From positions 37,631 through 101,630 of IMG/VR virus record IMGVR_UViG_3300045988_144418: DNA of 64,000 nucleotides. One strand, written 5' to 3'. The translations under genes were made by a program, and so were the position numbers. Below the pieces are notes generated by a model. It was not told the origin of the DNA. It made no database searches and was given only the letters and a program-made list of their open reading frames with translations. This stretch comes from a virus. Shown here in pieces: positions 5,678 to 53,708 of this stretch (position 1 is its first letter; each line of letters opens with the position of its first letter).

Positions 5678-6047
5678 GTTAAAGTTACTGGCTGACTCCT
5701 TAGGAATAGGTGCTGTGTCAGCGGAGGTTGAAAAGATTATGCTTCAGGAACAGCAGGTGTCAACGGAAACGGTTCTTCGTCTGCTTGGCGAGTTGCTGTC
5801 AATGCTGTCCACTATGGGCAGAAGGATGATGCACTTTAGGGACAGGACAGGCCAGATTCTTTCCAAGGGCTTTATCATTATGTTCCGTAAGAGTGAGACA
5901 GTTGAGGGTGAGCCTACTATTGTTATCAATGACTTTGGTGCAGGACTAAAGGCGGAGAACAACCCTGTTATAGAACTGGAGCTTGTTTATGACGATGTTG
6001 ACGTGCGTGATGAGGACTTTGACACGTTATTATTAATGAAAAACTAA
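5658..6047 (+). CDS. hypothetical protein
   Basis: ORF track 5646..6047 starts at TTG; first ATG is at 5658. No motif recognised, and its position beside HNH/terminase is the only context. Confidence 0.4.
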   Translation: MKEILIKLKLLADSLGIGAVSAEVEKIMLQEQQVSTETVLRLLGELLSMLSTMGRRMMHFRDRTGQILSKGFIIMFRKSETVEGEPTIVINDFGAGLKAENNPVIELELVYDDVDVRDEDFDTLLLMKN

Positions 6048-6060
6048 AAATGATTTTGTT

Positions 6061-6720
6061 ATGAATTCCACGATTAGGTACATAATTGTTGGTGACAGTG
6101 AGACTGGAGGGCTTCCTAATAAGGGCAAACAGGCTTTCTATGACATTGCACTGTGTGAATTTGCCTTTGTCGTTATAGATATTCAGGAAATGAAAGTGGT
6201 GGAGGAATGGAGTACACTCTTTAGACCCTATAAGGACAATCTTGAGTATAACCCCCAGGCACTTGAGGTCAATGGTCTTACGGTTGAACAGTTGCAGAAA
6301 AGCGGTGATGACCTGAAGAACATCTATAAGGAAATGATCATGTTGTTTAAGAAGTATAAGAATCCTCGTATAGGAGCGGTACTTGCAGGACATAATTTTC
6401 AGCCGTTTGATATGCCTTTTCTCACTAATATGTTTGAGTTTTGCGGTGATAGCATCTGGAATTATGTCACGTTCGTGGAGGACACCATGAAGCTGGCTTG
6501 GTATCGTGCCAAGGAGCAGGAAAATTACAAGCTCGGAACGTGCTGTCGTATGGAGGGTGTTGATTTGGTTAACGCTCATCGTGCGCTTGCTGACACAAAG
6601 GCGAACGCCCTGTTGCTTTTGAAATACATTTCCTATATGCGTGGCTCTGGAGAGGGTTCGAGCGTTGCGATTCCAAGAATGAAGCCGTCTTCCTTTAGAG
6701 AGACCTTTCAACTTGTGTAG
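6061..6720 (+). CDS. DnaQ-like DEDDh 3'-5' exonuclease
   Basis: ExoI VGDSETGG, ExoII HNFQPFDMPFL, ExoIII HRALADTKANA. Confidence 0.75.
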   Translation: MNSTIRYIIVGDSETGGLPNKGKQAFYDIALCEFAFVVIDIQEMKVVEEWSTLFRPYKDNLEYNPQALEVNGLTVEQLQKSGDDLKNIYKEMIMLFKKYKNPRIGAVLAGHNFQPFDMPFLTNMFEFCGDSIWNYVTFVEDTMKLAWYRAKEQENYKLGTCCRMEGVDLVNAHRALADTKANALLLLKYISYMRGSGEGSSVAIPRMKPSSFRETFQLV

Positions 6721-6722
6721 TG

Positions 6723-8822
6723 ATGATTGAGTTTAATGAGAATAACAGTCTTTCTTTTCGGCAGCTGGATAGTATTATAGACACCACAACGAGAATAGTG
6801 CAGAATCTCCCTGTAAAAGCCATAAATCAGCTTATGGAGGGGTATAGGGGGGATCAGGATGCTATGTTGTCAGAGATGTTTCGTCAGACAGAGAATGTTC
6901 TGAAGTTGAACACTACATTGGAAACTGAACGTCTTTCCTATGTCGATCAGCTTATTGAGAGCATGGATGAGTCCTTGAAGATAATGTCATACAATTACTT
7001 CAAGACTACAATGCTTCCTAATTTTAGACAGGGGTGGAGAAATCTTGAGTGGGGTAATATGATTCAGCTGTACCCGAATAGTGCTTATCTTGCGGCTCGT
7101 TCTCATGGGAAGTGCTTTTTGGCTGGAACTCACATCTTGATGGCTGATTGGACAGTGAAGAATGTGGAGGACATCTATCCTGGGATGGAGGTGATGGGTA
7201 TGGACTTTACCCCAAGAAAGGTTTTCACACGGCATATTGGTCGGTCACAGATGTTTACGGTGCACCAGGAGAATGGCATTTCCTATACCGTGAATAGATT
7301 CCACATTCTCTGCCTATGGGATACAAAGAGGAAACACTATGTTGAGGTTCCGATGGGAAATTTTCTGAAATATCCTCAAGAAAAACAGAATAGGTTTAGA
7401 GGGTACAGAGTGTTTTCGAGCGACAACCCTATACTGGAATATTCTCCTATAGCGGTTGAACCGTATGGTGATGGATCCTACTATGGTTTTGCCTGTGACG
7501 GTGATCATAAGTTTCTTCTGGAGGACAATACTGTTGTTCATAATTCGTATGAATTTTGTATGGGGCTTCCTCTGTGGAGGATGTACTCCTATCGTAGACC
7601 AAATTTTATGAAGCCTGATATTCCGGACAATAGGAATAGAAAGGAAACTTGCATTATAACCAACACGGAGACACTCGGTAAGGAGCATCTGGATAAGATT
7701 AAGGAGGAGATTCATACCAATGAAGCACTTTCAGCGGTGCTTAATCCGAACGGCAAGGCTTCGCTTGGAGCTACTGGCTTTGAGTGTGAGAATGGATCCA
7801 AACTGCATCTTAGAGGGAAGGACGGATTCATTCGAGGTCTTCACGTGGGTGCGGCTGTGTCTGATGACCTCCCTGATGATAGCTCCATCTATAGTCTGGA
7901 GCAGAGAGAGAAGTTGAGAGACCTGTTTAAGGGTGCTATCACCCCTATTGTAGAGCCGTATGGATATAATATCGTGGATGGCACACCGTATCAGGCACAG
8001 GATCTTTATTATGAGTTGAAGCAGGATCCGAAATTTATGGTGTTTGAGTATCCAGCCATATTTCCTGACGGCAGACTTTTGGCACCTGATCGTTTTACGT
8101 TTGACAAGTTGATGGAGGAAAAGAAGTCCGTGGGTACGCTTGTGTTTAGCCGTGAGTATCTTGTTGTTCCTATTTCTGACGATTCCACCATTTTTCCTAT
8201 GGAGATATTAATGCGAAGCACGATAGGAATGGAGAATGTGCGACTTGTAGATAATATTGAATCGTTTCCATTCAAGTTGTCCAGAGTGGTTGTAGGGTGT
8301 GATTTTGCCGTGTCAGGAAATGTGGGTGCTGACTACACTTGTTATACGGTATGGGGGAAGGATTTGAATGGTTCCTATTATCTTCTGTACATCTATCGGG
8401 AAAAAGGTTTGTCACATAATGAGCAGATAAACAAGATAGAGTACTTGAACACGGTGTTTAAGCCGAATGAGATTGTGGTGGAGAATAACGGTTTTCAGTC
8501 CATTCTTGCTGATATGTGTGTACAGAGAGGAATCAAAAATATATATCCGTTTACCACTACTTCAGGAAACAAGAAGGACTTGCGAACAGGGTGGGCGTCG
8601 CTTGCAGCTCTATTTGAGAGAGGTGATATACGATGTCCGTATCATCCTGACACACGACAGAGGATAGACACTATGTTTGGGGAGTTTACATCTATTGCGT
8701 TTCGTTCTGATAAAGGTACACTGGAATCCATTAGCGGTCACGATGACACAGTATCATCCTCGTTTATGGCAATAAATAGATTACGTGAATCAGCTGTTCA
8801 GATAAAGGTTGATGCAGTATAA
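6723..8822 (+). CDS. terL: terminase large subunit, intein-containing
   Basis: The Walker-A loop AARSHGK|S is interrupted by an intein. The C-terminal half looks like an RNaseH-fold nuclease region (VVGCDFAVSG...DYTCYTVWG, GHDDTVSS). ATG at 6723; the track's GTG at 6720 overlaps the upstream stop. Confidence 0.8.
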   Translation: MIEFNENNSLSFRQLDSIIDTTTRIVQNLPVKAINQLMEGYRGDQDAMLSEMFRQTENVLKLNTTLETERLSYVDQLIESMDESLKIMSYNYFKTTMLPNFRQGWRNLEWGNMIQLYPNSAYLAARSHGKCFLAGTHILMADWTVKNVEDIYPGMEVMGMDFTPRKVFTRHIGRSQMFTVHQENGISYTVNRFHILCLWDTKRKHYVEVPMGNFLKYPQEKQNRFRGYRVFSSDNPILEYSPIAVEPYGDGSYYGFACDGDHKFLLEDNTVVHNSYEFCMGLPLWRMYSYRRPNFMKPDIPDNRNRKETCIITNTETLGKEHLDKIKEEIHTNEALSAVLNPNGKASLGATGFECENGSKLHLRGKDGFIRGLHVGAAVSDDLPDDSSIYSLEQREKLRDLFKGAITPIVEPYGYNIVDGTPYQAQDLYYELKQDPKFMVFEYPAIFPDGRLLAPDRFTFDKLMEEKKSVGTLVFSREYLVVPISDDSTIFPMEILMRSTIGMENVRLVDNIESFPFKLSRVVVGCDFAVSGNVGADYTCYTVWGKDLNGSYYLLYIYREKGLSHNEQINKIEYLNTVFKPNEIVVENNGFQSILADMCVQRGIKNIYPFTTTSGNKKDLRTGWASLAALFERGDIRCPYHPDTRQRIDTMFGEFTSIAFRSDKGTLESISGHDDTVSSSFMAINRLRESAVQIKVDAV
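7113..7544 (+). mobile_element. mini-intein (144 aa, no homing-endonuclease domain) in the terminase P-loop
   Basis: Starts with Cys (tgc at 7113-7115; CFLAGTHILMADW). Ends ...YYGFACDGDHKFLLEDNTVVHN (aat at 7542-7544), followed by the +1 Ser (tcg at 7545-7547). These are classic block A and block F/G signatures. Confidence 0.8.
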
Positions 8823-8842
8823 TAAAATAGAAATGATTTTGT

Positions 8843-10381
8843 ATGCAGACAAAGAAATTTGATGCGGTCTTGAGTCCGACATTTGTTGAAGAAATGCTTC
8901 GGCTCGCATATTCCAACAAGACATTCGCAGGGCTTGTGGTTGAGAATGTTAATGTAAGCAATTTTCCTCGTGAGCTTGGTGCGTGTAAGGCAATGCTCAA
9001 GGTACTGGCTGATAACTATCGTAATGGAGTATTTGCCACCTTGGGAATGGTTGAGATGGCCTTTCCGAAGAGTGATGAAGTAGCCAAGAAGATTTCTGAA
9101 ATTAAGAATATGCCTGTTCCTCCCTATGATGGGATGGTTAAGCAGTTGGAAACATTCATTCGTCGGCAGACATTTGTGGCTGTGCAGCATGAAGTGAGTG
9201 ATATGTATAATGAGGGTAAGCCTGACGAAGCGATGGACTTGTTGGGGCGCAGGATGTCTGAAATACTGTCCTTTTCTTTGAAGCAGGGTGCAAAGGGGAA
9301 ATTTTCCAGAATATATAGGGACTTTGTGCGTAACATAGCGATTGCACAGCAGAAGCAGGATGATGAGGTTAAGCGTCCAAAGATTCCTCTTGGCATCACG
9401 TCTTTGGATGATTTAACTGACGGTGGTGTTCCTCGGCAGGATACTGTTCTTTGGATTATGCGTTCCGGAGTGGGAAAATCCACGGCCTTGAAATATCATG
9501 CTTGGTACAATACGTCAATATCACATAATCACTGTCTTCACATCCAGCTGGAGGGTGGTGAGCAGGAGGCAGTGGTGAAGTTTGATCAGATGCTTGCACA
9601 GACAACCTATGCAAAGGTTTTGCGAGGTGATATTACGTCTGACACTCAGAAGCGTGTGCAGTCACTTATCAGAAGGGCTGTTACGGTGAATTCTGATATA
9701 GACGTGTATGCTTCCGAGGAGATGATGGAAATGACGATAGCTGACATTGTCAAGGTGGTGGAGGATTATTATCTGGAGTATGGCTATTATCCTGATCTGA
9801 TAACAGTTGATTCCATTGATCTTTTGCTTACAGGGCAGAACAGCAAGATAGACTATGATCCTAACTTTATTAAGTATAGACTACAGAAGTGTGCACAGCG
9901 GTTAAAGGATCTTGCCACGAAGTATGATTGTGTCGTGATGACAGCCACTCAGACCTGTGATGTTCCTATGGAACTATGGAACGATCCATCTCGTGTCATA
10001 ACACGTCAGCACACAGAGGGTGATAGAACACTGGTCAAGCCGTTTTCCTTTGTGTTTACAGGTAATGTAACCATTGAGGAGGGTGCTCAGAACGTTATGC
10101 GTATATTCTGTGATAAGTTTCGAAATTATCGAAATAACGGAATAATTGTGAAGATACCGACCAACTATGAGAACGGCTTCTTTTACGACCTAAAACGTTC
10201 CGTAAAGGAGGAACAGGTACTTGATATGAACGCTATGCTGAAGATGGATGGCGCTCCTACACGCAGAAGACGCACAAGTGATGGCAGACAGACGGAGACA
10301 AAGACGGTTGAGGTGTCAAGCGGTGTGTTCGTGACTCAGAATGTTGAGAAGAAGAAAGTGCCGCAGAAAAGGGGTGTCTGA
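8843..10381 (+). CDS. DnaB-like replicative helicase (RecA-fold C-terminal domain)
   Basis: IPLGITSLDDLTDGGVPRQDTVLWIMRSGVGKSTALKY matches the DnaB/gp4 C-terminal Walker-A context. A Walker-B-like LITVDSIDLL is also present. Confidence 0.7.
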   Translation: MQTKKFDAVLSPTFVEEMLRLAYSNKTFAGLVVENVNVSNFPRELGACKAMLKVLADNYRNGVFATLGMVEMAFPKSDEVAKKISEIKNMPVPPYDGMVKQLETFIRRQTFVAVQHEVSDMYNEGKPDEAMDLLGRRMSEILSFSLKQGAKGKFSRIYRDFVRNIAIAQQKQDDEVKRPKIPLGITSLDDLTDGGVPRQDTVLWIMRSGVGKSTALKYHAWYNTSISHNHCLHIQLEGGEQEAVVKFDQMLAQTTYAKVLRGDITSDTQKRVQSLIRRAVTVNSDIDVYASEEMMEMTIADIVKVVEDYYLEYGYYPDLITVDSIDLLLTGQNSKIDYDPNFIKYRLQKCAQRLKDLATKYDCVVMTATQTCDVPMELWNDPSRVITRQHTEGDRTLVKPFSFVFTGNVTIEEGAQNVMRIFCDKFRNYRNNGIIVKIPTNYENGFFYDLKRSVKEEQVLDMNAMLKMDGAPTRRRRTSDGRQTETKTVEVSSGVFVTQNVEKKKVPQKRGV

Positions 10382-12379: not shown

Positions 12380-12409
12380 TTGGATATCTAAGATAAGTGA
12401 CTATATTTG
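12380..12409 (+). promoter_or_regulatory. conserved phage promoter, copy 1
   Basis: TTGGATATCTAAGATAAGTGAC-TATATTTG, with the leader ...aattaaatca... before the ATG at 12446. Confidence 0.6.
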
Positions 12410-28261: not shown

Positions 28262-28308
28262 TATAATCGATGTGAAATGATTAAATTTGGGTCGTATATT
28301 AATGCTTT

Positions 28309-28932
28309 ATGATGATGAATACGACACAGATTGTAAGTTCGGCGATTGATACAGGCAAGGCGATTGGCGACGTTGGTATGATGGCCGTTACGGCTGGATT
28401 TTTTCTTGTTCTTTCCGGGATTTTGATGGTGGTGTGCTTTAAGTGGTTCATTCGCCTGATTAATAGCATGCTTCAGGATCAGAAACGAACGATGGAAGAA
28501 CTCTTGAAGGAGACACGAGATCAAAATTCAAAACTTGCGGAACTATCAGAATGTCTTGCTCCTGGAAATCAGTTAAAGACAAAAGTGATTTCAAATGCTT
28601 TCTTTGATTTAGGTGTCGAAAAGGTTTGCCGTGTTATCAAAAAGGTTAGGGCAGAAAATCACATTGTTGACAGGGAAACAACAACGGCAAAGGTTCATAA
28701 ATTGCTGAAGAATTTGCATGATGACAGGAATAGTAAACTGGATTCATTTACTTATTTAGGCCGACCTCTTTCAAGTTACACTGATGAAAAATGGGTTGTT
28801 AAGGTTGCGGAAGTCGTTCTTAGCGAAATTTATAATGAAAATGGAGCTAATGATGAAAGAGCCTGTACAAATGTTACAGCCGTGTATGATCAAATAAAGT
28901 TGGATTTTTATAGTAATATGATGCAGAGATAG
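28309..28932 (+). CDS. hypothetical membrane protein
   Basis: N-terminal TM helix (MMAVTAGFFLVLSGILMVVCF). It is the first gene of the effector cassette. Confidence 0.5.
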   Translation: MMMNTTQIVSSAIDTGKAIGDVGMMAVTAGFFLVLSGILMVVCFKWFIRLINSMLQDQKRTMEELLKETRDQNSKLAELSECLAPGNQLKTKVISNAFFDLGVEKVCRVIKKVRAENHIVDRETTTAKVHKLLKNLHDDRNSKLDSFTYLGRPLSSYTDEKWVVKVAEVVLSEIYNENGANDERACTNVTAVYDQIKLDFYSNMMQR

Positions 28933-28934
28933 TT

Positions 28935-30068
28935 ATGGGTCTTTTTGAATTTATAGCTAAATCACGTTCTGGAGTTTATAAGAATACTTCAGAAAATCGT
29001 AGACTCCATCGTGTGGGGCAAAGATATGGTGAGCAGAGGCAACTGGCGGATGAGGGTGAACTGATTCCAGGAATGCCTAATTTCACCAAGGTGAATCTGA
29101 AGAAGTATTTGTCTGACAAGATAAAGAAACAGGTGGATGACTATATTGTTAATGTCTCAACCACTCCAGGATGGAATAATCCTGAGCAGGTCTCCCTTAT
29201 GGTAAAAGTTGTGCAGAAGCACTTCAATGAAGCTTTTGATGATATGACCAAGGCGCAGAGAGCCTACTGGGTGGAATTGGCAAAGCGGCTTTTGGGGCGA
29301 ATGGAATCTCTTAATGCAGGTGGCGACAAGGAGGAATCCGTTAAGCCTGAAGAGACACCAAAGCCTACATTGAAGGAACGTGTTGACAATTTTGAACAGA
29401 AGGAAAAAGCGAAGAATATCTTTGAACAGGCAGCACAGAAGTACGGAATTGAACATGGTAAGCCGATGTCCATTGATAGAGCTGATCGTAAGCACGCCAA
29501 CCCGAAATTTCTGACGCTTGTAGATGGAAGTTTTCGTCCATACACTTCAAACTGTCAGACCTGTGTGGTTGCCTATGAACTTCGTAAGAGGGGTTATGAC
29601 GTTGAAGCAAAGGGTGTTGGTGTTAAGCCGAAGTCCTATGTAAATAATTTTCAAAGAGAAATGGCCTATGATAGTACCTTTGCTTTTGCTGATAAGGATA
29701 TAGATCTTATTAGGCCGAACTTTACAGGTGAGATTAAGTTCAATACGGATAAGGGTCGTAGGCAGTTTCGAATGAAAATTTTTGACGCCATAAAAGAGCA
29801 GGGAACTTATTTCTTATCTTTTAAGAACAAGGGGCGTCAGAGTGGTCATATTGTGGTGCTTGAACACACGACTAATAATTTTTTGTTGATAGATCCACAG
29901 TCCAATAGAAGAATTGATCTTAAATCTGACGAATTCATGCAGTATCTTGCTGGAGTGGATGTTACACATAAAAATAATAGACTATTTAGGGTGAATGACT
30001 TGACATTCAAACCTGAGGTATTTTCTGTGATGGAAAAGGCAAATACAGAACCAGATATATATGATTAA
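28935..30068 (+). CDS. effector with shared N-terminal leader and C-terminal papain-fold toxin-like (glutamine-deamidase-like) domain
   Basis: N-terminus MGLFEFIAKSRSGVYKNTSENRRLHRVGQRYG is shared with the 30355 gene. The C-terminus has TSNCQTCVVAYELRKRGYDV ... SGHIVVLEHTTNNFLLIDPQSN, a Cys...His...Asp pattern that resembles, from memory, the Pfam 'papain fold toxin 1'. Confidence 0.5.
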   Translation: MGLFEFIAKSRSGVYKNTSENRRLHRVGQRYGEQRQLADEGELIPGMPNFTKVNLKKYLSDKIKKQVDDYIVNVSTTPGWNNPEQVSLMVKVVQKHFNEAFDDMTKAQRAYWVELAKRLLGRMESLNAGGDKEESVKPEETPKPTLKERVDNFEQKEKAKNIFEQAAQKYGIEHGKPMSIDRADRKHANPKFLTLVDGSFRPYTSNCQTCVVAYELRKRGYDVEAKGVGVKPKSYVNNFQREMAYDSTFAFADKDIDLIRPNFTGEIKFNTDKGRRQFRMKIFDAIKEQGTYFLSFKNKGRQSGHIVVLEHTTNNFLLIDPQSNRRIDLKSDEFMQYLAGVDVTHKNNRLFRVNDLTFKPEVFSVMEKANTEPDIYD

Positions 30069-30297
30069 TGAAAAGGATATTTTGAAAATCTGCGAAGCGG
30101 CAGGTTGGAAAGGCGGCGAACTGATTTACGGTGGGTTTGCTGACGGCAAGTATTATGTCTCCTATGGAGCTGAGAGTGACGGTGCAGAACTTGCGTGTGT
30201 GGGCGCTCCTATAATTCTTGTCGTGGAGAACGGCAGATGTAGGACAGCTACTGACAAGGAATGGGTTTATTTTTATGAAAATTTTGTGAAAGATTAA
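30061..30297 (+). CDS. small protein, candidate immunity/antidote to the upstream effector
   Basis: 78 aa, overlapping the upstream stop by 8 nt (translational coupling). No motif recognised. Confidence 0.4.
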   Translation: MINEKDILKICEAAGWKGGELIYGGFADGKYYVSYGAESDGAELACVGAPIILVVENGRCRTATDKEWVYFYENFVKD

Positions 30298-30307
30298 GGA
30301 TTAATCC

Positions 30308-30337
30308 TTGGATATTTCAGAATAATGATTATATTTG
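30308..30337 (+). promoter_or_regulatory. conserved phage promoter, copy 3
   Basis: ggattaatccTTGGATATTTCAGAATAATGAT-TATATTTG, upstream of the SAS-like gene. Confidence 0.65.
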
Positions 30338-30354
30338 CGTAGTAAAATTCAATT

Positions 30355-31083
30355 ATGGGTTTATTTGAATACATAGTTAAGTCCAGATCAGGTGTCTATA
30401 AGGATAATTCTGAAAATAGGCGGCTTCACAGGGCTGGACTGCAATATGGTCAGAAAAAGCAGCAGGAAAGCGTTCCTGATGTAAACAAGAAGGATCTTGA
30501 ACTTGCGGAAGCAAAGGTTAAGAAAATGCTTGTCGTGAAGCAGAACTTTGATGATGTTTCACAGGCGGTGTGTCAGGAGGTTGGCTGTATTGTTTCTCCT
30601 ACTAATATTAAAAAGCCCGTAAGAATTGCTCAGAAAATGGCTTCTGATGGTTCTACTATTGATGAGATTAAGGATGTTATGCGTAACACCTTTGTTGTTA
30701 ATAGTGACGATGATGTTGGCAAGGTTATAGAAGCCATATCCAAGCATTATAAAGTTGTTAGGGTAAAGTATCAAACGCCCGACAGGTTCGCTGGATATAG
30801 CGGCAATATTGTCAATGTGGAGCTTCCTAATGATGAAATTGGTGAAATGCAGGTGAATACGCCACAAATGATATTTGGCAAGGAAGTTGAACGTGATGCC
30901 AGAATGATTTTGGGTGATGGCCTATGGGAACGATTGAAAGCCAATGCAGGAAATCTTATTCCAGGACTTGGTCATAGGATGTATGAGGTGCTTCGGGATG
31001 ATTCCATTGACGATGAAAGGCTTGATATTGTCGAACGCAATAGTAGAATTTATTATGATAGAATTAGAAAGATTTCGCTATGA
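30355..31083 (+). CDS. effector with shared N-terminal leader and RelA/SpoT-like nucleotidyltransferase (small alarmone synthetase / toxSAS-like) domain
   Basis: N-terminus MGLFEYIVKSRSGVYKDNSENRRLHRAGLQYG. Synthetase-like motifs: KKPVRIAQKM, IKDVMRNTFVV, AGYSGNIVNVEL, IGEMQVNTPQMIF (compare DIxGxRV, GYRSxH, EIQIRT). Confidence 0.6.
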   Translation: MGLFEYIVKSRSGVYKDNSENRRLHRAGLQYGQKKQQESVPDVNKKDLELAEAKVKKMLVVKQNFDDVSQAVCQEVGCIVSPTNIKKPVRIAQKMASDGSTIDEIKDVMRNTFVVNSDDDVGKVIEAISKHYKVVRVKYQTPDRFAGYSGNIVNVELPNDEIGEMQVNTPQMIFGKEVERDARMILGDGLWERLKANAGNLIPGLGHRMYEVLRDDSIDDERLDIVERNSRIYYDRIRKISL

Positions 31084-31328
31084 GAACTGTAACTAACAAG
31101 GAACTGGGGGAGTTGCTCCGCTCCAATGAAATGGTCTATCTTCTGGACGACACTGATGAAATCGCATGGGGATTTCTCGGTGATGGAAAGAACCGTAGAA
31201 GAGTGGTGAGCAAGGCAAAGGGCAGGGAACCTGTTGAGCACAATCCCAAGCAGCAGAACTCCAATAGTATGATTCGTGCCTATCTGAATAAGGATGTGAT
31301 GACCAAGGAGGAGTTTGAAAACTATTAG
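31080..31328 (+). CDS. small protein, translationally coupled to the SAS-like gene (candidate antitoxin/immunity)
   Basis: 82 aa, with an ATGA start/stop overlap at 31080-31083. Confidence 0.4.
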   Translation: MRTVTNKELGELLRSNEMVYLLDDTDEIAWGFLGDGKNRRRVVSKAKGREPVEHNPKQQNSNSMIRAYLNKDVMTKEEFENY

Positions 31329-31336
31329 AATTTTCC

Positions 31337-31366
31337 TTGGAAATTCAAGAACAATGACTATATTTG
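31337..31366 (+). promoter_or_regulatory. conserved phage promoter, copy 4
   Basis: TTGGAAATTCAAGAACAATGAC-TATATTTG, upstream of the alarmone hydrolase gene. Confidence 0.65.
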
Positions 31367-31394
31367 CACTGTGAAAATTAAAAATGATTTTGTT

Positions 31395-31847
31395 ATGATT
31401 AAGATTGTCACTAAATCTCAGGACAGATTTCGTCAGGCCGTTGAAATAGCTGTCCAGGCACATCAGGGTCAGGTTGACCGAAATGGTGTTCCGTATATCT
31501 GTCATTCTATTGCCGTTGCTCAAAAGTGCTCATTCTATACAGCCAAGTGTGTGGCTATGCTTCACGATGTGCTGGAGGACACGGAGGTTACGGCACAGGA
31601 TCTATTTAAGATGGGTGTTGAGGAATATATCATTGAATGTGTGGAAAAATTGACGCACGATCCAAAGGTTCCATATCTGGATTATATTCAAAGCATAATT
31701 GACACCAGAGATGCTAATATCATATCGGTTAAGTACGCTGATCTATGTGATAATCTCGATCCTACGAGGGGTGGAATGAATGAAAAGAAAGTGCCTCTGT
31801 ATCGCAAGGCCAGAAGAATGATGGAGGAAGCATTATGTTTCATATAG
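31395..31847 (+). CDS. HD-domain small alarmone hydrolase (SpoT/Mesh1-like)
   Basis: AVEIAVQAHQGQVDRNGVPYICHSIAVAQ and AMLHDVLEDTEVT are the SpoT hydrolase HD signature. The ATG at 31395 follows aaaatgattttgttATG; the track start at 31371 is a GTG. Confidence 0.75.
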   Translation: MIKIVTKSQDRFRQAVEIAVQAHQGQVDRNGVPYICHSIAVAQKCSFYTAKCVAMLHDVLEDTEVTAQDLFKMGVEEYIIECVEKLTHDPKVPYLDYIQSIIDTRDANIISVKYADLCDNLDPTRGGMNEKKVPLYRKARRMMEEALCFI

Positions 31848-33769
31848 AACTAAGAAATGAAATCCTCCGTTTGAATTCTCTGTATAGGCAGGGCAAGCCG
31901 GAGGTCAGTGATGTTGAGTACGATTCACTTGTGGAGCAACTGAGGGCTATATCTCCTGATGATGATTTCTTCAAGTCTGGTGTTGCTGAAAAGGCAACGG
32001 ATAGAATGCAGAAACTCCCTCTTCCTATGTTTTCTCTGGAGAAAATAAAGACGTTTAAGGAGTTTTTGACGTGGGTTGATAGGATGGTTATGGCTGGGTG
32101 TAAAAATCTCGTAATAACGCCTAAATATGACGGAATAAGTCTTCTTATCAGTGAACTGTCACAGGCTGCCTGGACAAGGGGTGACGGTGTGCAGGGTCAG
32201 CGGAGTGACGCACACTTTTCACGAATGAAGAATGGTGAGGTTGAACAGCCTGTGTTTGAATACATATGGGGTGAAGCTATCTGTTCCAAAAAGGATTTTG
32301 AATCCGTTAAGGGTGAGTACAAGAATGCTCGCAATATGGTTGCAGGTTTGTTCAATTCTCCTATGGGGGCTAATACAGAACAGATAGGGGCTGTCACCTT
32401 TGTAAGGTATGGCATTGATTCTGATGAAAATAAATCCGTTCAACTGGATTATCTTAATGGTCGTTACCAATATACTACAACATACAGACTGATACAGATT
32501 GAAAACATTCTTATGTATAATGAGAATGATGTGCTGGATATGTTGGATAGGTTTTATAGAGAATGGAAGCTGGAGTATCAAATAGACGGTCTGGTGATTG
32601 AAGCTAATGAAAACAGTGTTCGAAAGAAGCTGGGTCGTAAGCCGAATGGAAATCCTGACTATGCTATTGCATTTAAGAGGGAGGAGTGGTTGCAGTTCTA
32701 TACAACGACCGTGGAAAAGGTTGAATGGAATGTTAGCAAGGATGGCTGTCTGTGTCCTGTGGTATGCGTAAAGCCTGTTGAAATGGAGAGTGCTACTGTT
32801 TCCAAGGTGACAGGGTATAATGCTAAATATATTCTTGACAATCATATTGCAGGTGGTTCTACAATAGACATCATTCGTAGTGGCGACGTCATTCCAAAGC
32901 ACATTAGAACACTTGGTTATTCTCCAGAAATATGTTCGAAGGAATTTCCTACTGTCTGTCCATGCTGTGGTAAGCCTGTTCAATGGGATGCTACGCATAC
33001 TGAGCTTGTATGTGTGAATGAGAACTGTAAACAGCAGGTCATTTCTCGTATGGTGTATTTCTTCAGGACGATGGGCTGCGAGGGTTTTGATGAACCTATT
33101 GTACGTCGCCTGTATGACGCTGGAATGGATAGTGTTCAGCTTGTTGTGGCAAGTAGGTCAATGGCATTTATGCACATACTTGGGGAGAACAAGGGGCTGG
33201 CTGTGTATAATGAGATTCAGAATAGGGTGCTTAATACAAAGAACCCTGTCGCAAGACTTATGACTGCATATAATGTTTTTGGAGGCGTTCTTGCCGAAAA
33301 GACGGCTCAAAGCATTATAGATGGCAGTGAAGCAGTTCAATATCTGTTGGATATCCATGAACCTATCAGGGATAATGATATTCTGGCAGATATTCTGGCA
33401 GTTCTTCGTGCGGAGCTTTGTTCTATTCCTGGTGTGGGTGCTGTCACGGCTGATACATTCATCACAGGTATGAATAAGTTTTTGGATATGAGATGCCTGT
33501 ATCTTTATTACATTTGCACTCCTAAGAAAATTTTGGCTGACAACTGTATGTATGTCTGCATGACAGGTTTTAGGGATAAGGAACTGGAGAATGAGCTTAT
33601 AAAACAGGGACATGAGGTTCTGAATGGCGTTACGGCCAAGTGTACAGTTCTTGTGGTGGCTGATTTGAATTCAACAAGCAGTAAGATGCAAAAGGCTCAG
33701 AAGATGGGAATTCGTATTGTGGACAGAAAGACATTTGAAAATGAAATATACGGCAAAGAAAATAAGTAA
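31835..33769 (+). CDS. ligA: NAD-dependent DNA ligase
   Basis: Adenylation motif ITPKYDGISL, zinc finger CPCCGKPVQWD...LVCVNENC, HhH region, C-terminal BRCT-like MYVCMTGFRDKELENELIKQG. Confidence 0.9.
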   Translation: MFHIELRNEILRLNSLYRQGKPEVSDVEYDSLVEQLRAISPDDDFFKSGVAEKATDRMQKLPLPMFSLEKIKTFKEFLTWVDRMVMAGCKNLVITPKYDGISLLISELSQAAWTRGDGVQGQRSDAHFSRMKNGEVEQPVFEYIWGEAICSKKDFESVKGEYKNARNMVAGLFNSPMGANTEQIGAVTFVRYGIDSDENKSVQLDYLNGRYQYTTTYRLIQIENILMYNENDVLDMLDRFYREWKLEYQIDGLVIEANENSVRKKLGRKPNGNPDYAIAFKREEWLQFYTTTVEKVEWNVSKDGCLCPVVCVKPVEMESATVSKVTGYNAKYILDNHIAGGSTIDIIRSGDVIPKHIRTLGYSPEICSKEFPTVCPCCGKPVQWDATHTELVCVNENCKQQVISRMVYFFRTMGCEGFDEPIVRRLYDAGMDSVQLVVASRSMAFMHILGENKGLAVYNEIQNRVLNTKNPVARLMTAYNVFGGVLAEKTAQSIIDGSEAVQYLLDIHEPIRDNDILADILAVLRAELCSIPGVGAVTADTFITGMNKFLDMRCLYLYYICTPKKILADNCMYVCMTGFRDKELENELIKQGHEVLNGVTAKCTVLVVADLNSTSSKMQKAQKMGIRIVDRKTFENEIYGKENK

Positions 33770-33959
33770 AGGGCATTATTTGTATCGTGGTTATCGTATC
33801 AATTGTGTTGGTTATTATGCCCCTGATAAACATAAATGTTGGGAAGCAGTTGATAAGGACGGTACTGGATTCGCTCATTCTTATTCTTTGCGTATGACCA
33901 AGGCACTTGTGGATGACGAGGTGGCCAGAAAGGAACGTGGTGAGGAGGACGGATGGTGA
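33741..33959 (+). CDS. hypothetical small protein
   Basis: The track ORF 33717..33959 starts at TTG; first ATG is at 33741. It overlaps the end of the ligase gene. Confidence 0.35.
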   Translation: MKYTAKKISKGHYLYRGYRINCVGYYAPDKHKCWEAVDKDGTGFAHSYSLRMTKALVDDEVARKERGEEDGW

Positions 33960-38184: not shown

Positions 38185-39801
38185 ATGAACACAAGAATTC
38201 TTTTTGGAAAGGACGCAAGAGCAGCTCTGCTCGCTGGAGCGGAGGAGCTCTATTCAGCGGTGGCGTCCACACTCGGACCGAGAGGTCACACGGTTGCGAT
38301 TGATAAGGGGTACGGCATACCTCATATCACCAAGGATGGTGTGACGGTGGCTCGTGCCTATGACATTGATGATCCGATGAAGCGAATGGGCGCAACACTC
38401 GTTAAGATGGTGGCTGCAAAGACCTGTGATCAAGCAGGTGACGGAACCACCACGGCCACGATATTGTCCTACGCTATGATGAAGCGTGGTGTGTGTGGCT
38501 CGGTGAACATACAGAATCCGCATGAGTATCGCAGAGGTATGGAAGACGCACTGGATGAGGCTGTCAGCTATATTAAGTCCAGTGCTGTAAAGATAGAGCC
38601 TGACGAGATTGACAAAATCAGACAGGTGGCCAAGGTGTCAGCCAACGGTGATGATATGGTGGCTGATCTTATTACATCGGCGATAGAGAGTGTCGGCAAT
38701 GACGGCATCATTACCGTTGAGGAGAGCACCAAGGGAGATGAATCCACGGTGGAGGTTACAACTGGCTTTCAGTGGAGTAAGGGGATTATAAATCCATATT
38801 TTGTTACTGACAGTGAGCGAATGGAGTGTGTTCTGGATAAGCCGTATGTTCTTATCTGGGGTCAAAACATCAATTATGTTCAGGAGATTCTTGCTGTGGT
38901 GCAGACTGTATATACAGCCAAGAGATCCCTTTTGATTGTAGCTCCAAACGCTTCCAATGACGTGATAAAGTTTCTTGTCACAAACGTTCAGCAGAATAAC
39001 GGTCTAAAGGCATGTTTTGTAAAGGCTCCAGGATTCGGTCAGATGCAGAAAGACTTGATGCAGGATTTGGCTGTAAAGGTGGGCGGCAAAATTGTTGGTG
39101 AGGAATACGGTAATGCCATGGAGTCATTTGGAACTGACTGGCTTGGTGAGGTGGACAAGGCCACAATCTCAGCCAATAGAACCGTTCTCGTGGGCGGTGC
39201 TGGAAAGTCTGTGGATATAGATGCTCGAATAGAATTCATCAGGAATGAAATGGCTGAAAACTCCAACACCTATGATAGAGAAAAGTATAGAGAGCGCATC
39301 AGTCGTCTTACAGGCGGTGCGGCTGTCATCTATGTAGGTGCGGACAGTGAAGTGGAGATGAATGAGCGCAAGGATAGAGTGGATGACGCCATTGCGGCCA
39401 CCAGAGCCGCTCTTGATGAGGGTTATGTTCCGGGAGGGGGGACAATTCAGTATAAGATAGCCAAGATTCTGGAAAGGTCACTGGATGACAACCCAAAATG
39501 GAGCACCGATTATTTGGAGGGCTACCGTACTGTGATTGATGCCCTGAAGAAACACTTTCACATTCTATGTGAGAATGCAGGAGTGGAGCCTATTCGGATT
39601 GAGGTTATGATGGACTTGAAGTCCACGGCATTACAGCAGGGCTACAATCCATTTACTAACAGTATAGAGGATATGTATAAGGCTGGCGTGATAGATCCAG
39701 CCAAGGTCACACGAACATCACTGGAGAATGCTGTGTCGGTGGCCGTTCAGTTCCTCGGTATGTCGTGCGCTATGTCAGGTGAGGAGGCTAAGAAAGTATG
39801 A
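38185..39801 (+). CDS. groL: GroEL-family chaperonin (Cpn60)
   Basis: DAGDGTTTATIL-type ATP motif (QAGDGTTTATIL), ITVEEST, AALDEGYVPGGG; length 538 aa. Confidence 0.9.
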   Translation: MNTRILFGKDARAALLAGAEELYSAVASTLGPRGHTVAIDKGYGIPHITKDGVTVARAYDIDDPMKRMGATLVKMVAAKTCDQAGDGTTTATILSYAMMKRGVCGSVNIQNPHEYRRGMEDALDEAVSYIKSSAVKIEPDEIDKIRQVAKVSANGDDMVADLITSAIESVGNDGIITVEESTKGDESTVEVTTGFQWSKGIINPYFVTDSERMECVLDKPYVLIWGQNINYVQEILAVVQTVYTAKRSLLIVAPNASNDVIKFLVTNVQQNNGLKACFVKAPGFGQMQKDLMQDLAVKVGGKIVGEEYGNAMESFGTDWLGEVDKATISANRTVLVGGAGKSVDIDARIEFIRNEMAENSNTYDREKYRERISRLTGGAAVIYVGADSEVEMNERKDRVDDAIAATRAALDEGYVPGGGTIQYKIAKILERSLDDNPKWSTDYLEGYRTVIDALKKHFHILCENAGVEPIRIEVMMDLKSTALQQGYNPFTNSIEDMYKAGVIDPAKVTRTSLENAVSVAVQFLGMSCAMSGEEAKKV

Positions 39802-42507: not shown

Positions 42508-43422
42508 ATGGCAAAACCAGATTGGATAACATTAAGCAAGACGTCAGGTACAGGCAATGATACTGTTACCGTGACGGCTGCGAAGAACACGGGCACCTCT
42601 GCAAGGAGCGGCTCAATCACTGTCAAGTCAGGATCTCTATCAAAGGTGGTGACGATAAGTCAAGAGGCGCAGACCCAGAATTCTCTCGTGTGGCCTACAA
42701 GTGGGCTGGCGTTTCCTCCGATTCAGAATTATAGTTCTAACAATTCTACTCACCTGGATGTGGATCTTAAATACTTTGACGGTTCACTCACCACACTGGA
42801 CGCTACAATCTTTATGGTGAATGGTGAGGAAGAATCCTCCAGCCGAGTTCTATCTGACTTCGGTCTATCCTTGACAGGGTCTATCATAAAGACAAACGGT
42901 GACACCACGACAGTCAGGTTCCAGGTGACAGTCACTGATTCCACCAAGCTGGAGGCCGAGCTGGACACTTCCCATTATGGAGAGGGAACCGAGACGGAGC
43001 CATATTATGGAGACATGAGTTTTTACATCACTGGATTGAAAGGTGAGGACGGTGTGGGTGTTGCAAGCGAAACGTATGCGCTTACAATCTACAAGGTAGT
43101 GCCACAAAGCCCTGTTGGTAAAATTACATTATCGCCTGAAACTGTGGAGATTGATCTTGAGGGTAATGCTTCCGTTACCGTAACTTATTCCAACATCGTT
43201 CCTTCCTCCATCCAAATAGACACAAGTGAAGTCCCTGACAGCATTACAATTGCCCCTCAGAACCTGCCTGTCGGACAGGAAATAAGTAGTGGAACACTTG
43301 ATCTCTTTATTACCGTTAGTTCAGAAGCGACAACGGATTTCAACCACGAATTTAACGTTTCAGGTCGTGATTCTGAAGGTCAGACAATCACGGCAACAGG
43401 TACAATCTATATTAGACCGTAG
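42508..43422 (+). CDS. BACON-domain tail fibre / receptor-binding protein, currently expressed variant
   Basis: The N-terminus PDWITLSKTSGTGNDTVTVTAAKNTGTSARSGSITVKSGSLSKVVTISQ is BACON-like. Codons 35-53 lie inside the left 55-bp inverted repeat. Confidence 0.65.
   Translation: MAKPDWITLSKTSGTGNDTVTVTAAKNTGTSARSGSITVKSGSLSKVVTISQEAQTQNSLVWPTSGLAFPPIQNYSSNNSTHLDVDLKYFDGSLTTLDATIFMVNGEEESSSRVLSDFGLSLTGSIIKTNGDTTTVRFQVTVTDSTKLEAELDTSHYGEGTETEPYYGDMSFYITGLKGEDGVGVASETYALTIYKVVPQSPVGKITLSPETVEIDLEGNASVTVTYSNIVPSSIQIDTSEVPDSITIAPQNLPVGQEISSGTLDLFITVSSEATTDFNHEFNVSGRDSEGQTITATGTIYIRP
42611..42665 (+). repeat. left 55-bp inverted repeat (IR-L)
   Basis: gctcaatcactgtcaagtcaggatctctatcaaaggtggtgacgataagtcaaga is the exact reverse complement of 44477-44531. 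Confidence 0.95.
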
Positions 43423-51469: not shown

Positions 51470-52369
51470 ATGTCACATTTCAACAGCATCACATCGTTTC
51501 AGAATCTCAAGGATCAGTACAGAATCCTTGCTATGGCCAACCACCCTGACAGGGGCGGTGACACAGCCACTATGCAGGAGATCAATGCCGAATACAGCCG
51601 CCTGTACGCCATCTGGGTGAACAGGATAGAGGACGCAAACGTTCGCCCCACGATGACGGCCGAGCAGTCCATCCACCACTTCTACACGCAGAACGGATGG
51701 GAGGGTTCCAACTATGACTCCAGTCTCAGCACCAAGGACATCGCCGCTCTGGTTCGTGAATACTGCAAGCAGAACTGGAATCAGTGGAAGTTCTCTATCA
51801 GATGCCACTTTGCCTCCATGTGCAGCGAAATTAGGGTATATCTTCAGGGTGGCCCGATAGCTTCAGGTCTGGTCGGGGAGCAGGGTGAATGCTGTCAGGA
51901 GTTCGGCTACCAGACGAGATACCAATACAGAAGTGAGCGTGACGACAGGGTGGCACCTGAGGCGGAGATTGTGATGCAGGACGTCATCGCCTACCTTAAA
52001 TCCTTCAACTATTACGACAGTGACAGTATGATCGACTACTTCGACACGAACTTCTATCTGTCTGAATACATCGCTGGCAGCAAGGAATGGAAGCACGTCC
52101 AGAGACAGGCTCGCATCACAGCCCCACAACCTACACCGAGTGAGGAACAGGCCTCAGCCCCAGGCCTTGGCGAGGGTGTGGACATCATCACCTATTCTGA
52201 CAGGGCTCTGGCCGTGGTGGGGGATACCAAGCCGCTGAGAGCACGCCTGAAGGAGCTCAAGGGTCGCTTCAATCCAGGCCTGACGGTGGATGGTGTTAGG
52301 AGGGCTGGATGGGTGTTCAGCGCAAAGACCTACACGGTTGACACCCTGAGACAGGCGATATTCGCCTGA
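51470..52369 (+). CDS. J-domain (DnaJ-like) protein with unrelated C-terminal domain
   Basis: N-terminal J domain LKDQYRILAMANHPDRGGDTATMQEINAEYSRLY (HPD motif). No DnaJ zinc finger or G/F region. Confidence 0.7.
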   Translation: MSHFNSITSFQNLKDQYRILAMANHPDRGGDTATMQEINAEYSRLYAIWVNRIEDANVRPTMTAEQSIHHFYTQNGWEGSNYDSSLSTKDIAALVREYCKQNWNQWKFSIRCHFASMCSEIRVYLQGGPIASGLVGEQGECCQEFGYQTRYQYRSERDDRVAPEAEIVMQDVIAYLKSFNYYDSDSMIDYFDTNFYLSEYIAGSKEWKHVQRQARITAPQPTPSEEQASAPGLGEGVDIITYSDRALAVVGDTKPLRARLKELKGRFNPGLTVDGVRRAGWVFSAKTYTVDTLRQAIFA

Positions 52370-52462: not shown

Positions 52463-52804
52463 ATGACGTTTTTACAAATCAACATAGGCACGAGAAAGGT
52501 GGCGTCACTGGAATGCGGCAAGGCCGTGTCTGATTCAGTCAAGGGCTTCTTCCGCATTCCAGTGACGGAATTAAGGGCGTGCGTTCTGGACGAGCGCAGC
52601 GGCTTCCTATCTCTGAGGATGCGACATGAGACGCTTAACCTCCACTCCACGGGCTGGAAATGGGAAGATCTTCTGGACGCATTCGTCGCGACCACTGAAG
52701 CCCTGATGAGCCACTATGCCGACAGACCTGACATGGAGAGCATGATAACCATAACCGAGACAGGAAACATCACAACACTTGTAAATCTATATTACGATGA
52801 ATAG
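52463..52804 (+). CDS. hypothetical protein
   Basis: 113-aa ORF. Confidence 0.45.
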   Translation: MTFLQINIGTRKVASLECGKAVSDSVKGFFRIPVTELRACVLDERSGFLSLRMRHETLNLHSTGWKWEDLLDAFVATTEALMSHYADRPDMESMITITETGNITTLVNLYYDE

Positions 52805-53708
52805 TAGAAAAGAAACACAGGCCGAGCCGTTCTTGAAGTGGGTCGGTGGAAAGGCTCGCAGGGTGAATGAGATACTTGACCTTATGCCTGAACAGATTGA
52901 TTACTACATGGAGCCGTTCCTGGGAGGTGGTGCGGTGGCACTGGAGGTTCTCCGGAGAAATCCTGATTGCAAGGCTCTGCTCTCGGATCTAAATCCACAC
53001 CTCATCGACTGTTGGCGACAGGTCAAGGAGAACCCACAGGATGTCATACGTTCCGTCCACGCACTGGATGACCGCTATCTGCGTCTAAAGTTCGCCTCTG
53101 AGCAGAAGTCGTTCTATATGGCCGTGCGTGAAAGGTGGAACATATATATGGCCGTGCTTGAGCGGTGTAACGAGAGTATGGGTGATGATGACAGCGGTGG
53201 CGAGGCTGGCAGAGCCGGAATGTTCCTGTGGCTGAATCGCAACTGTTTTCAGGGGATGTGGCGTGTGAACTCCAGGGGTGAGTTCAACGTTCCTTCAAGA
53301 CAGTCCCGCACAAGGGAGAGTCGTGTGAACTATGAGGCGATAGAACAGGCGTCCGCTCTGCTGAGAAACGCTGATATCCAGCAGGGAGGCTTTGATGAAT
53401 TCGTTATGGCTCCAGGAACGGTCGTCTTCGTGGATCCACCCTATATACGTGAAAATAACGGTCGTGGATTCACGGCATACACCAAGGACGGCTTCACCGA
53501 TGCGGATCATCTTGCACTGGCCGAGAAGCTGAGGCTAAGCGGAGCCACCTATGTGCTGACGATAGGCGGTGATGAGGACATCGTGCGTGAGATATACGGA
53601 CAGCCTGACAGCGTGTCAGAGATTCCCTGTACGTTTGCAGCCACCAACGCAGGAAGACGGACGAGAAATGAGTTTATAATTACAAACAATCTACGTAAAT
53701 TAAAATAA
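52797..53708 (+). CDS. dam: Dam-family (D12 class) N6-adenine DNA methyltransferase
   Basis: FLKWVGGK near the N-terminus and the catalytic VFVDPPYI. It contains a 30-bp in-frame tandem duplication at 53115-53174. Confidence 0.85.
   Translation: MNSRKETQAEPFLKWVGGKARRVNEILDLMPEQIDYYMEPFLGGGAVALEVLRRNPDCKALLSDLNPHLIDCWRQVKENPQDVIRSVHALDDRYLRLKFASEQKSFYMAVRERWNIYMAVLERCNESMGDDDSGGEAGRAGMFLWLNRNCFQGMWRVNSRGEFNVPSRQSRTRESRVNYEAIEQASALLRNADIQQGGFDEFVMAPGTVVFVDPPYIRENNGRGFTAYTKDGFTDADHLALAEKLRLSGATYVLTIGGDEDIVREIYGQPDSVSEIPCTFAATNAGRRTRNEFIITNNLRKLK

Follow-up and report, generated by a model that had tools for sequence, protein, structure and literature searches.

One operon of a Bacteroides caccae prophage encodes a Tas1-like toxin with a MuF domain, Apk2, together with two immunity proteins, the small structural BcTis1 and the enzymatic Aph1 (Ahmad et al. 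2023, PMC10083569). This three-gene layout has been published for Bacteroides and Streptococcus prophages as a "toxin with bicistronic immunity" (PMC10083569, PMC12226406), and the Apk2-IapK-Aph1 systems of B. caccae and Streptococcus pneumoniae prophages are also covered by Bartoli et al. 2023. Immunity of the IapK type is cognate-specific, and that of the Aph1 type is interchangeable, cross-protecting against non-cognate toxins (PMC12226406). Here we describe a related locus in IMG/VR virus record IMGVR_UViG_3300045988_144418, within a stretch of 64,000 nucleotides (positions 37,631 to 101,630 of the record) that is referred to as the window throughout. Three genes stand on its + strand, a 242-aa ORF (30355-31083), an 82-aa ORF (31080-31328) and a 150-aa ORF (31395-31847). 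The family assignments of the three proteins are firm on sequence and model comparison, and their enzyme products and neutralisation would follow by homology to tested proteins. On balance, we favour the explanation that 30305-31847 holds a toxin-immunity cassette bounded by promoters, with a gene for general immunity behind it, and that the whole is a system of the Apk2-BcTis1(IapK)-Aph1 kind; this modest preference applies to the explanation as a whole, that is, to the enzyme and immunity roles together with leader-mediated delivery. The features of the locus are as follows.

30305..30338, + strand: promoter-like repeat, copy 1 (TCCTTGGATATTTCAGAATAATGATTATATTTGC), with a -7 box TAnnTTTG of the Bacteroidetes type; bounds the toxin cassette on its 5' side.
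30355..30465, + strand: N-terminal toxin leader, aa 1-37, MGLFEYIVKSRSGVYKDNSENRRLHRAGLQYGQKKQQ; predicted to be disordered; motif SGVYxDxxENRRLHRVGQxYG.
30487..31083, + strand: Tas1/Apk-type RelA-SpoT synthetase toxin domain, aa ~45-242, adenosine 3'-pyrophosphokinase-like.
31080..31328, + strand: predicted BcTis1/IapK-like structural, toxin-specific immunity protein, 82 aa, coupled to the toxin gene.
31334..31367, + strand: promoter-like repeat, copy 2; bounds the toxin cassette on its 3' side and is the promoter of the hydrolase gene itself.
31395..31847, + strand: predicted Aph1-type HD-domain (p)ppApp hydrolase, toxin-unspecific enzymatic immunity (7SMG, Aph1, phrog_990).

An earlier note on this DNA had described a RelA-SpoT-type synthetase and a SpoT/Mesh1-type HD hydrolase on a phage, and every ORF and peptide it quoted was found in the window, with IKDVMRNTFVV, AGYSGNIVNVEL and IGEMQVNTPQMIF in the 242-aa ORF and HQGQVDRNGVPYICHSIAVA and MLHDVLEDTE in the 150-aa ORF. 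Its two enzyme families also hold, by matches to Tas1 (6OX6) and 7SMG respectively. Pfam does name both domains, each just below its cut-off (RelA_SpoT E 1.3e-5 and 25.9 bits against 27; HD_4 21 bits against 27.2), and it is the PDB searches that secure them. For residues 58-239 of the 242-aa protein, phmmer against PDB gave Tas1 6OX6 as the sole significant match (E 9.3e-17, 33% identity). The AlphaFold model is confident for aa 45-242, and the first Foldseek match to it was 6ox6_A (E 3.8e-10, TM 0.79, 33% identity), with SAS1/2, Rel and CapRel much weaker (TM 0.38-0.48, normalised to the query). BLASTP against the toxin domain of the Bacteroides prophage Apk2 (locus L064) showed 34% identity (E 4e-30).

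The synthetase-motif residues K86/K94, D107, R110, Y148, E164 and Q166 are invariant in an alignment of 12 family members, and D107/R110 (KDVMRNT) and E164/Q166 (GEMQVNT) align with KDLARNT and GEIQVNS of Tas1. The catalytic acidic residues are present on alignment as D107 and E164, which we take to be the Mg-binding Asp (DxxR) and the catalytic Glu (ExQ), corresponding to D264 and E323 of RelSeq. No Pfam domain, including MuF or PAAR, was found N-terminal to the toxin domain, and phrog_7625, the only PHROG 'head morphogenesis' match, covers the toxin domain and not the N-terminal module. Membership of the FaRel, PhRel or CapRel families of toxic small alarmone synthetases (toxSAS), in which the pair had been framed before, was rejected: the nearest kin are Tas1 and Apk2, CapRel (7ztb) reached a TM of 0.39 with 14% identity in Foldseek, and no PADLOC model matched any phage protein. 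The toxin-like character of the pair was upheld, and we assign the 242-aa protein with high confidence, from sequence and structural model, to the Tas1/Apk (p)ppApp-toxin family, polymorphic-toxin type. No contig on which its homologues were found exceeds 108 kb, and the four whose neighbourhoods were read are phage-like.

The best phmmer match in PDB for the 150-aa protein, which would be 158 aa long from an alternative in-frame GTG start at 31371, was the (p)ppApp hydrolase Aph1, 7SMG (E 2.7e-20); it is 37% identical to Aph1 of L064 (E 3e-26) and matches phrog_990 (E 3e-37). The metal ligands of the H...HD...D type are conserved, with H23/H37, H57-D58, E61-D62 and D119-N120 aligning with Aph1. 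Six residues, D24, R96, D116, R119, K133 and Y134, form the Aph signature, and mutating D24 and R119 lets Aph1 act on ppGpp, so that this pair sets specificity for ppApp versus ppGpp (PMC10083569). Four of the six, D24, D116, R119 and Y134, are kept here as D28, D122, R125 and Y136. With the same high confidence, held jointly for all three family assignments, the similarity identifies this protein as an Aph1-type (p)ppApp hydrolase.

For comparison of the locus among related phages, we used 45 IMG/VR loci and 7 contigs from other sources, anchored on a conserved 207-aa gene upstream, which is 83-100% identical in clade A and ~55% identical in clade B. The ATG of the 82-aa ORF overlaps the stop codon of the toxin gene (ATGA), and BcTis1, whose sequence was recovered from an IMG/VR contig with a 100% identical Aph1 (L064), is 27% identical to its product over 77 of 82 residues (E 1e-5). 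A 76-aa ORF that follows the toxin gene in clade B is 26% identical to it, and the blocks ELxxxLxSxExVYLLDDxEE and a C-terminal EF/YxxY are common to all three proteins. One or other of these small genes always accompanies the toxin, the 82-aa gene being present in every toxin-bearing locus and absent from every phage locus without a toxin. Neither the 82-aa ORF nor a 78-aa ORF further upstream (30061..30297) had a match in Pfam, PHROG, PDB sequences (phmmer), NCBIfam or PADLOC. The joint assignment thus includes the 82-aa protein as a homologue of the BcTis1/IapK structural immunity proteins; the coupling that the earlier note reported is real, but the ORF is more than a spacer between two enzyme genes and would be a third functional part.

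Compared with Apk2-BcTis1(IapK)-Aph1, the window has the same three genes in the same order (34%, 27% and 37% identity to L064). The window toxin differs in having no MuF domain, with a disordered leader of ~37 aa instead; its cassette lies in the replication module of a ~100-kb phage and not beside the portal gene of a temperate siphophage, and in clade B the order is hydrolase, toxin, immunity protein. The Tas1/Apk1-Tis1 pair of Pseudomonas aeruginosa (6OX6) provides the best solved-structure match to the toxin and likewise has an adjacent immunity gene. Tas1, however, is delivered via PAAR and type VI secretion (the T6SS), its system has no hydrolase, and the 82-aa protein has no detectable similarity to any PDB chain.

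The three genes are located between the UvsX/SbcCD/RuvC and NAD ligase/SNF2 genes of the replication module. Promoter copies placed at 30308 and 31337 by the earlier note were confirmed as 34-nt copies (30305-30338 and 31334-31367), for which zero matches are expected in shuffled sequence. A looser search for the element TTGG-N18-TAnnTTTG gave further copies in the window at 12380, 21301, 57591 and 63878, ahead of guanylate-kinase-like, thymidylate synthase and helicase genes. This element is probably a phage-specific early or middle promoter class. The six copies (12380, 21301, 30308, 31337, 57591 and 63878) have the consensus yyCTTGGAwATyyAAGAwnAnTGACTAyhTTTG.

In clade A, three states of the locus were found, with flanking genes 96-100% identical across them.

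State 1: deamidase and 78-aa genes, Apk and 82-aa genes, HD gene, ligase gene (window, L001/2, L009).
State 2: deamidase and 78-aa genes, Zeta-kinase protein gene, HD gene, ligase gene (L006/7, L010, L051).
State 3: deamidase and 78-aa genes, HD gene, ligase gene (L011, L012).

When L011 8920-9110 was compared with window 30230-30420 and 31260-31450, its junction was an exact hybrid of both promoter repeats with the cassette missing, and the cassette was therefore gained or lost by recombination between the flanking promoter repeats. The gene order in clade B is HD-Apk-76aa, and the three genes come and go as one unit, with 6 loci having them and 13 lacking them. The hydrolase gene thus travels with the toxin gene in clade B and outlasts it in clade A, where it is kept at 92-98% identity in sister phages that have the Zeta-kinase protein or nothing in place of the synthetase; this persistence gives some support to an independent protective role. 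The pattern of gain and loss among the phages matches the division between specific IapK and interchangeable Aph1 immunity. With regard to the earlier note's three readings, the comparison favours a toxin/immunity cassette over a purely regulatory pair. Polymorphism of a promoter-bounded cassette is a new part of the system. In the Zeta-kinase leader protein (L006 6001-7254), the C-terminal 96 residues correspond to a separate bacterial gene of 99 aa (L062 8529-8828, 86% identical), and P0017 consists of the leader and this Zeta-C domain alone. In the kinase toxin, the Zeta-C domain may serve as a fused part for immunity or regulation.

The shared N-terminal leader, which the earlier note had singled out as the unusual part, is indeed so: residues 1-36 of the 242-aa protein recur in the product of the 377-aa ORF at 28935-30068, and no other ORF of the window has them. 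AlphaFold assigned pLDDT <50 to aa 1-39. With a leader profile (A1) made from 13 leaders, an exhaustive search of 1.84 billion representative proteins matched 907 representatives at E<=1e-3 and 263 at E<=1e-10, and the core motif is Y-x-D-x-x-x-N-R-x-L-x-R-V-G. Many of the matches are proteins of 100-800 aa that are not related in other respects and carry the leader right at the N-terminus. Others have internal copies between domains of large phage proteins (NUDIX, P0083/P0087; DUF5661, P0082/P0088), and in P0073 (899 aa) ~12 tandem YVDNAxNRxLGRVG repeats precede a eukaryote-type protein kinase domain. Among 79 proteins with an N-terminal leader, most had no Pfam domain behind it, and every domain that Pfam recognised is of a toxin type (Gln_amidase in 4, ADPrib_exo_Tox in 2, ART in 1 and Zeta_toxin in 1). 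The motif corresponds to no Pfam family, a description of it was not found in the searchable literature, and a word-indexed protein search with the leader alignment returned only uninformative fragments of 30-78 aa. A candidate origin as a MuF remnant was rejected, the leader profile having no match in the Apk2 locus L064. This leader, in place of a MuF or PAAR delivery domain, is a new part of the system. That it brings toxins into virions, to be ejected into the next host, is a possibility to which we give slightly less than an even chance. Motif proteins also occur in the cultured Bacteroides phages DAC/SJC. In one of these, SJC03 (L008, MT074146.1), which grows on B. thetaiotaomicron, the motif occurs near the N-termini of three neighbouring hypothetical proteins (5938-6783, 8830-9738 and 9754-10377).

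The second leader gene of the window and the small ORF behind it are directly upstream of the toxin cassette.

28935..30068, + strand: 377-aa protein with leader, 'VNLKKYLS' module and C-terminal papain-fold glutamine-deamidase toxin domain.
30061..30297, + strand: 78-aa ORF, presumed cognate deamidase immunity, overlapping the end of the deamidase gene.

The 377-aa protein matches Pfam Gln_amidase above the gathering score (E 5.7e-8), and the 78-aa ORF always follows the deamidase gene in clade A. We also surveyed 80 loci from related phages, each centred on the portal gene. Most of them have two motif genes directly upstream of the portal gene, one with internal copies and one with an N-terminal leader; more distant loci have a single motif gene, one placed elsewhere in the locus, or none at all. 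The gene pair is also found in the window's own clade (L163, on the same contig as L009), where the 427-aa portal-adjacent protein starts with MLMEKSRSGVYQDTSENRRLNRVGQHYG and ends in a 'VNLKKYLS...FNxxFD...KSERAxxLY' module, which the window's deamidase protein also has behind its leader. A glutamine-deamidase toxin (Pfam E 1e-15) forms the C-terminal end of the portal-adjacent leader protein in 18 of the 80 loci, and in the one such locus examined for it (L173) a small ORF with weak similarity to the window's 78-aa ORF overlaps and follows the deamidase leader gene. The portal-adjacent leader proteins gave no MuF match in Pfam or PHROG, yet those with a deamidase correspond to MuF toxins in genomic position and architecture.

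MuF toxins are known to combine a constant N-terminal phage module with swappable C-terminal toxins (RSH, ADP-ribosyltransferase, deamidase and others), with an immunity gene after each (Jamet et al. 2017). The leader proteins share this plan, and in relatives the leader-deamidase toxin gene is directly upstream of the portal gene. Their constant module, however, is a short linear motif with or without the 'VNLKKYLS' module and not a MuF domain of ~300 aa, and the window cassette is not beside the portal gene, being placed between the RuvC/SbcCD and ligase genes. In phage T4, the internal proteins and Alt have a short N-terminal capsid-targeting tag that is common to unrelated, hypervariable proteins packaged and injected with the DNA, and their genes are outside the head-gene cluster. 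The T4 tag has no sequence relationship to the leader and serves as an analogy only.

The 82-aa protein has many homologues at 85-98% identity, and the four clusters that were looked up are all in bacterial contexts. We examined 18 loci from gut Bacteroidales (among them L054 2654-6823 and L062 4576-8828; also L055-L063 and L225-L232), and all 18 start with a 293-aa GIY-YIG-like protein which matches the PADLOC UzuA (Uzume) model from end to end (E 4e-80). After UzuA, in the same direction, come a variable set of small ORFs for secreted or lipoprotein-like products, an Aph-like HD gene, the 82-aa gene and a homologue of the 78-aa ORF. The HD gene, intact or decayed, is ~36% identical to that of the phage; the 82-aa copies are 85-94% identical to the phage's (91-95% nucleotide identity in the two arrays compared), and the 78-aa homologue reaches 82% identity. 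In most loci there is also the 99-aa gene, whose identity to the last 96 residues of the Zeta-kinase protein reaches 86%. Neither a toxin domain nor a leader is present in any of the 18 loci. The arrays occupy at least four different sites, with metagenome-assembled genome titles naming Bacteroidales and Muribaculaceae, and the neighbours at three of the sites read include TrxB-like/BamD/RpoZ/RecN, Fe-ADH/LolA and YccF/peptidase M28; since these are housekeeping neighbours at several sites, the arrays are chromosomal. A literature search on Uzume/UzuA found nothing relevant. A distant homologue of the arrays' 198-aa secreted protein (24% identity, E 2e-9) is encoded in clade A near the head module, on the opposite strand (L162 1525-2028 and L163 1520-2023, minus).

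These arrays resemble the orphan-immunity arrays of acquired interbacterial defence (AID/rAID-1) of Bacteroidales in having co-directional, toxin-free immunity genes at several chromosomal sites (Ross et al. 2019; bioRxiv 10.1101/471110), but they follow the GIY-YIG-like UzuA and not a XerD-like recombinase, and their closest cognate toxins are phage-encoded and not T6SS effectors. Such Uzume-linked antidote arrays in host genomes are a new part of the system, and they look like orphan-immunity islands aimed at phage toxins. That toxin-free arrays hold copies of the small phage ORFs is independent support for calling those ORFs immunity proteins, and it implies that the toxins reach cells able to survive the encounter.

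By analogy with the tested proteins, the 242-aa protein would act as an adenosine 3'-pyrophosphokinase, transferring pyrophosphate from ATP onto ATP or ADP to make (p)ppApp, so that the ATP pool is drained and growth is blocked. The 82-aa protein, made from the same mRNA, would bind the toxin and occlude its acceptor site in a toxin-specific manner, and the HD enzyme, from its own promoter, would convert (p)ppApp back to ATP or ADP and be effective against any such toxin. The leader would recruit synthetase, deamidase, Zeta-kinase and ADP-ribosyltransferase toxins into the phage head near the portal, and the toxin would be ejected with the DNA into the next cell unaccompanied by its immunity proteins. 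There, a transient burst of ATP depletion would cripple host functions until newly made 82-aa protein and hydrolase stop it. Cells that destroy the incoming DNA would still be harmed by the injected toxin, so that captured antidotes would be selected. With its translation coupled to that of its own inhibitor, the toxin should be inert in the producing cell, and this argues for action elsewhere; taken with the portal-adjacent leader proteins and the antidote arrays, it makes virion delivery the most economical reading.

The presence of leader proteins in virions is a prediction that we hold at a little under even, and several observations weigh against this explanation. The cassette is in the replication module, and its promoter type is shared with nucleotide-metabolism and helicase genes, which suggests early or middle and not late expression. 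The leader motif is also found in tandem in a eukaryote-like kinase and inside large phage proteins, and so may be a general binding motif and not a dedicated packaging tag. As to the enzymes, the Pfam scores of both synthetase and hydrolase fall below the gathering thresholds, and R96 and K133 of the Aph signature are not conserved in the hydrolase (S100 and L135), the alignment at R96 being uncertain beside an indel. Foldseek with the AlphaFold model of the 82-aa protein (pLDDT 91) gave no significant PDB match (best E 0.25, chance level), nor was the immunity chain of 6OX6 among the 50 best matches, and because there is no solved-structure match, the link to Tis1 comes solely from the 27% identity to BcTis1. 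A wider proposal is put forward only tentatively, namely that the leader is a portable tag for capsid loading and ejection, marking out a family of polymorphic toxins ((p)ppApp synthetase, glutamine deamidase, Zeta-like kinase and ADP-ribosyltransferase) which large Bacteroidales phages deliver in their virions independently of MuF, and that the Uzume-linked arrays of captured phage immunity genes are an acquired defence of gut Bacteroidales, directed against phage-injected toxins and not against the T6SS effectors of bacteria.

Of the other explanations, an intracellular toxin-antitoxin or exclusion module, with nothing packaged, survives best, though we regard it as unlikely. The 82-aa protein would here be a labile antitoxin, lost, for example, once a host defence or a competing phage stops phage transcription, upon which the toxin arrests the cell, with the hydrolase setting the threshold. 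The tight coupling of the toxin and 82-aa genes agrees with such a module, as do the early or middle replication-module site under a promoter class that also drives replication genes, and a cassette that is dispensable and swapped between sister phages. The nearest kin of the toxin, however, are Tas1 and Apk2, which are delivered polymorphic toxins and not toxSAS, and the leader would be left without a role although it is the most conserved part and recurs on portal-adjacent proteins and other toxins. Toxin-free chromosomal arrays would also be hard to explain if the toxin acted only in cells making the antitoxin.

Somewhat less probable again is that the hydrolase is chiefly a stand-alone enzyme of counter-defence or cross-protection, to which adjacency of the synthetase is secondary, acting on (p)ppApp or related 3'-pyrophosphorylated nucleotides from host toxSAS, T6SS Apk toxins or co-infecting phages. 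Its own promoter and its retention in synthetase-free sister phages are in line with this, Aph1 enzymes are known to cross-protect against non-cognate toxins (PMC12226406), and most bacterial Aph homologues are not beside toxins (PMC10083569). In clade B, though, gain or loss of the HD gene always involves the toxin and its small partner as well, and HD genes adjoin Apk toxins in published prophage systems too. Such a role is compatible with the delivery explanation preferred here. It is very improbable that the synthetase makes something else, either (p)ppGpp in a stringent-like response or pyrophosphorylated tRNA 3'-CCA ends in the manner of CapRel, FaRel2 and PhRel, for although all these enzymes have the RSH synthetase fold and sequence cannot fix the substrate with certainty (motif swaps in Apk2 did not yield a ppGpp synthetase; PMC12226406), it is the ppApp makers Tas1 and Apk2 that match best in sequence and fold, well above SAS1/2, Rel and CapRel, and the partner hydrolase carries the ppApp-specific D24/R119 signature.

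The phage, a gut Bacteroidales phage, is one of a set of uncultured relatives with genomes of ~100 kb. A crAss-like affiliation was considered, and the phage's TerL is only 34% identical to that of Bacteroides phages DAC/SJC; the window has Bacteroidetes-type promoters and encodes a BACON-domain protein. No integrase was found among the window ORFs tested. Megablast of window 28300-33800 against phage records gave no match, and tblastn of the toxin against phage records gave one, in an unannotated record. Other genes of the window encode a stand-alone LPD29 (large polyvalent-protein-associated) domain protein, a GroEL-like chaperonin, the BACON-domain protein and a Dam-type methyltransferase (coordinates for the four together: 51470-52369; 38185-39801; 42508-43422; 52797-53708). 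Selfish insertions were seen in relatives, with a Hom_end/Hint intein-type insertion in a UvrD-like helicase (L003 from 11806), a GIY-YIG/NUMOD3 homing-endonuclease gene between the ligase and SNF2 genes (L004 9209-9961), and an intein-like ORF adjoining the portal gene (L144 7167-9194).

Studies of Apk2-IapK-Aph1 left open whether phage polymorphic toxins are carried in the virion and injected, and what benefit they bring to the phage (PMC10083569, discussion). The present locus offers a simpler handle on both questions, with a short, separable leader in place of a whole MuF domain, natural sister phages that differ solely in the cassette (synthetase, Zeta-kinase or none), and bacterial genomes in which the antidotes alone have been kept, next to a gene already known as anti-phage. 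Were the leader a packaging tag, it would provide a compact means of getting cargo into phage heads and would account for ~900 motif-bearing protein families. If the arrays protect against injected toxins, orphan-immunity islands would join the means of anti-phage defence, beyond their part in interbacterial warfare.

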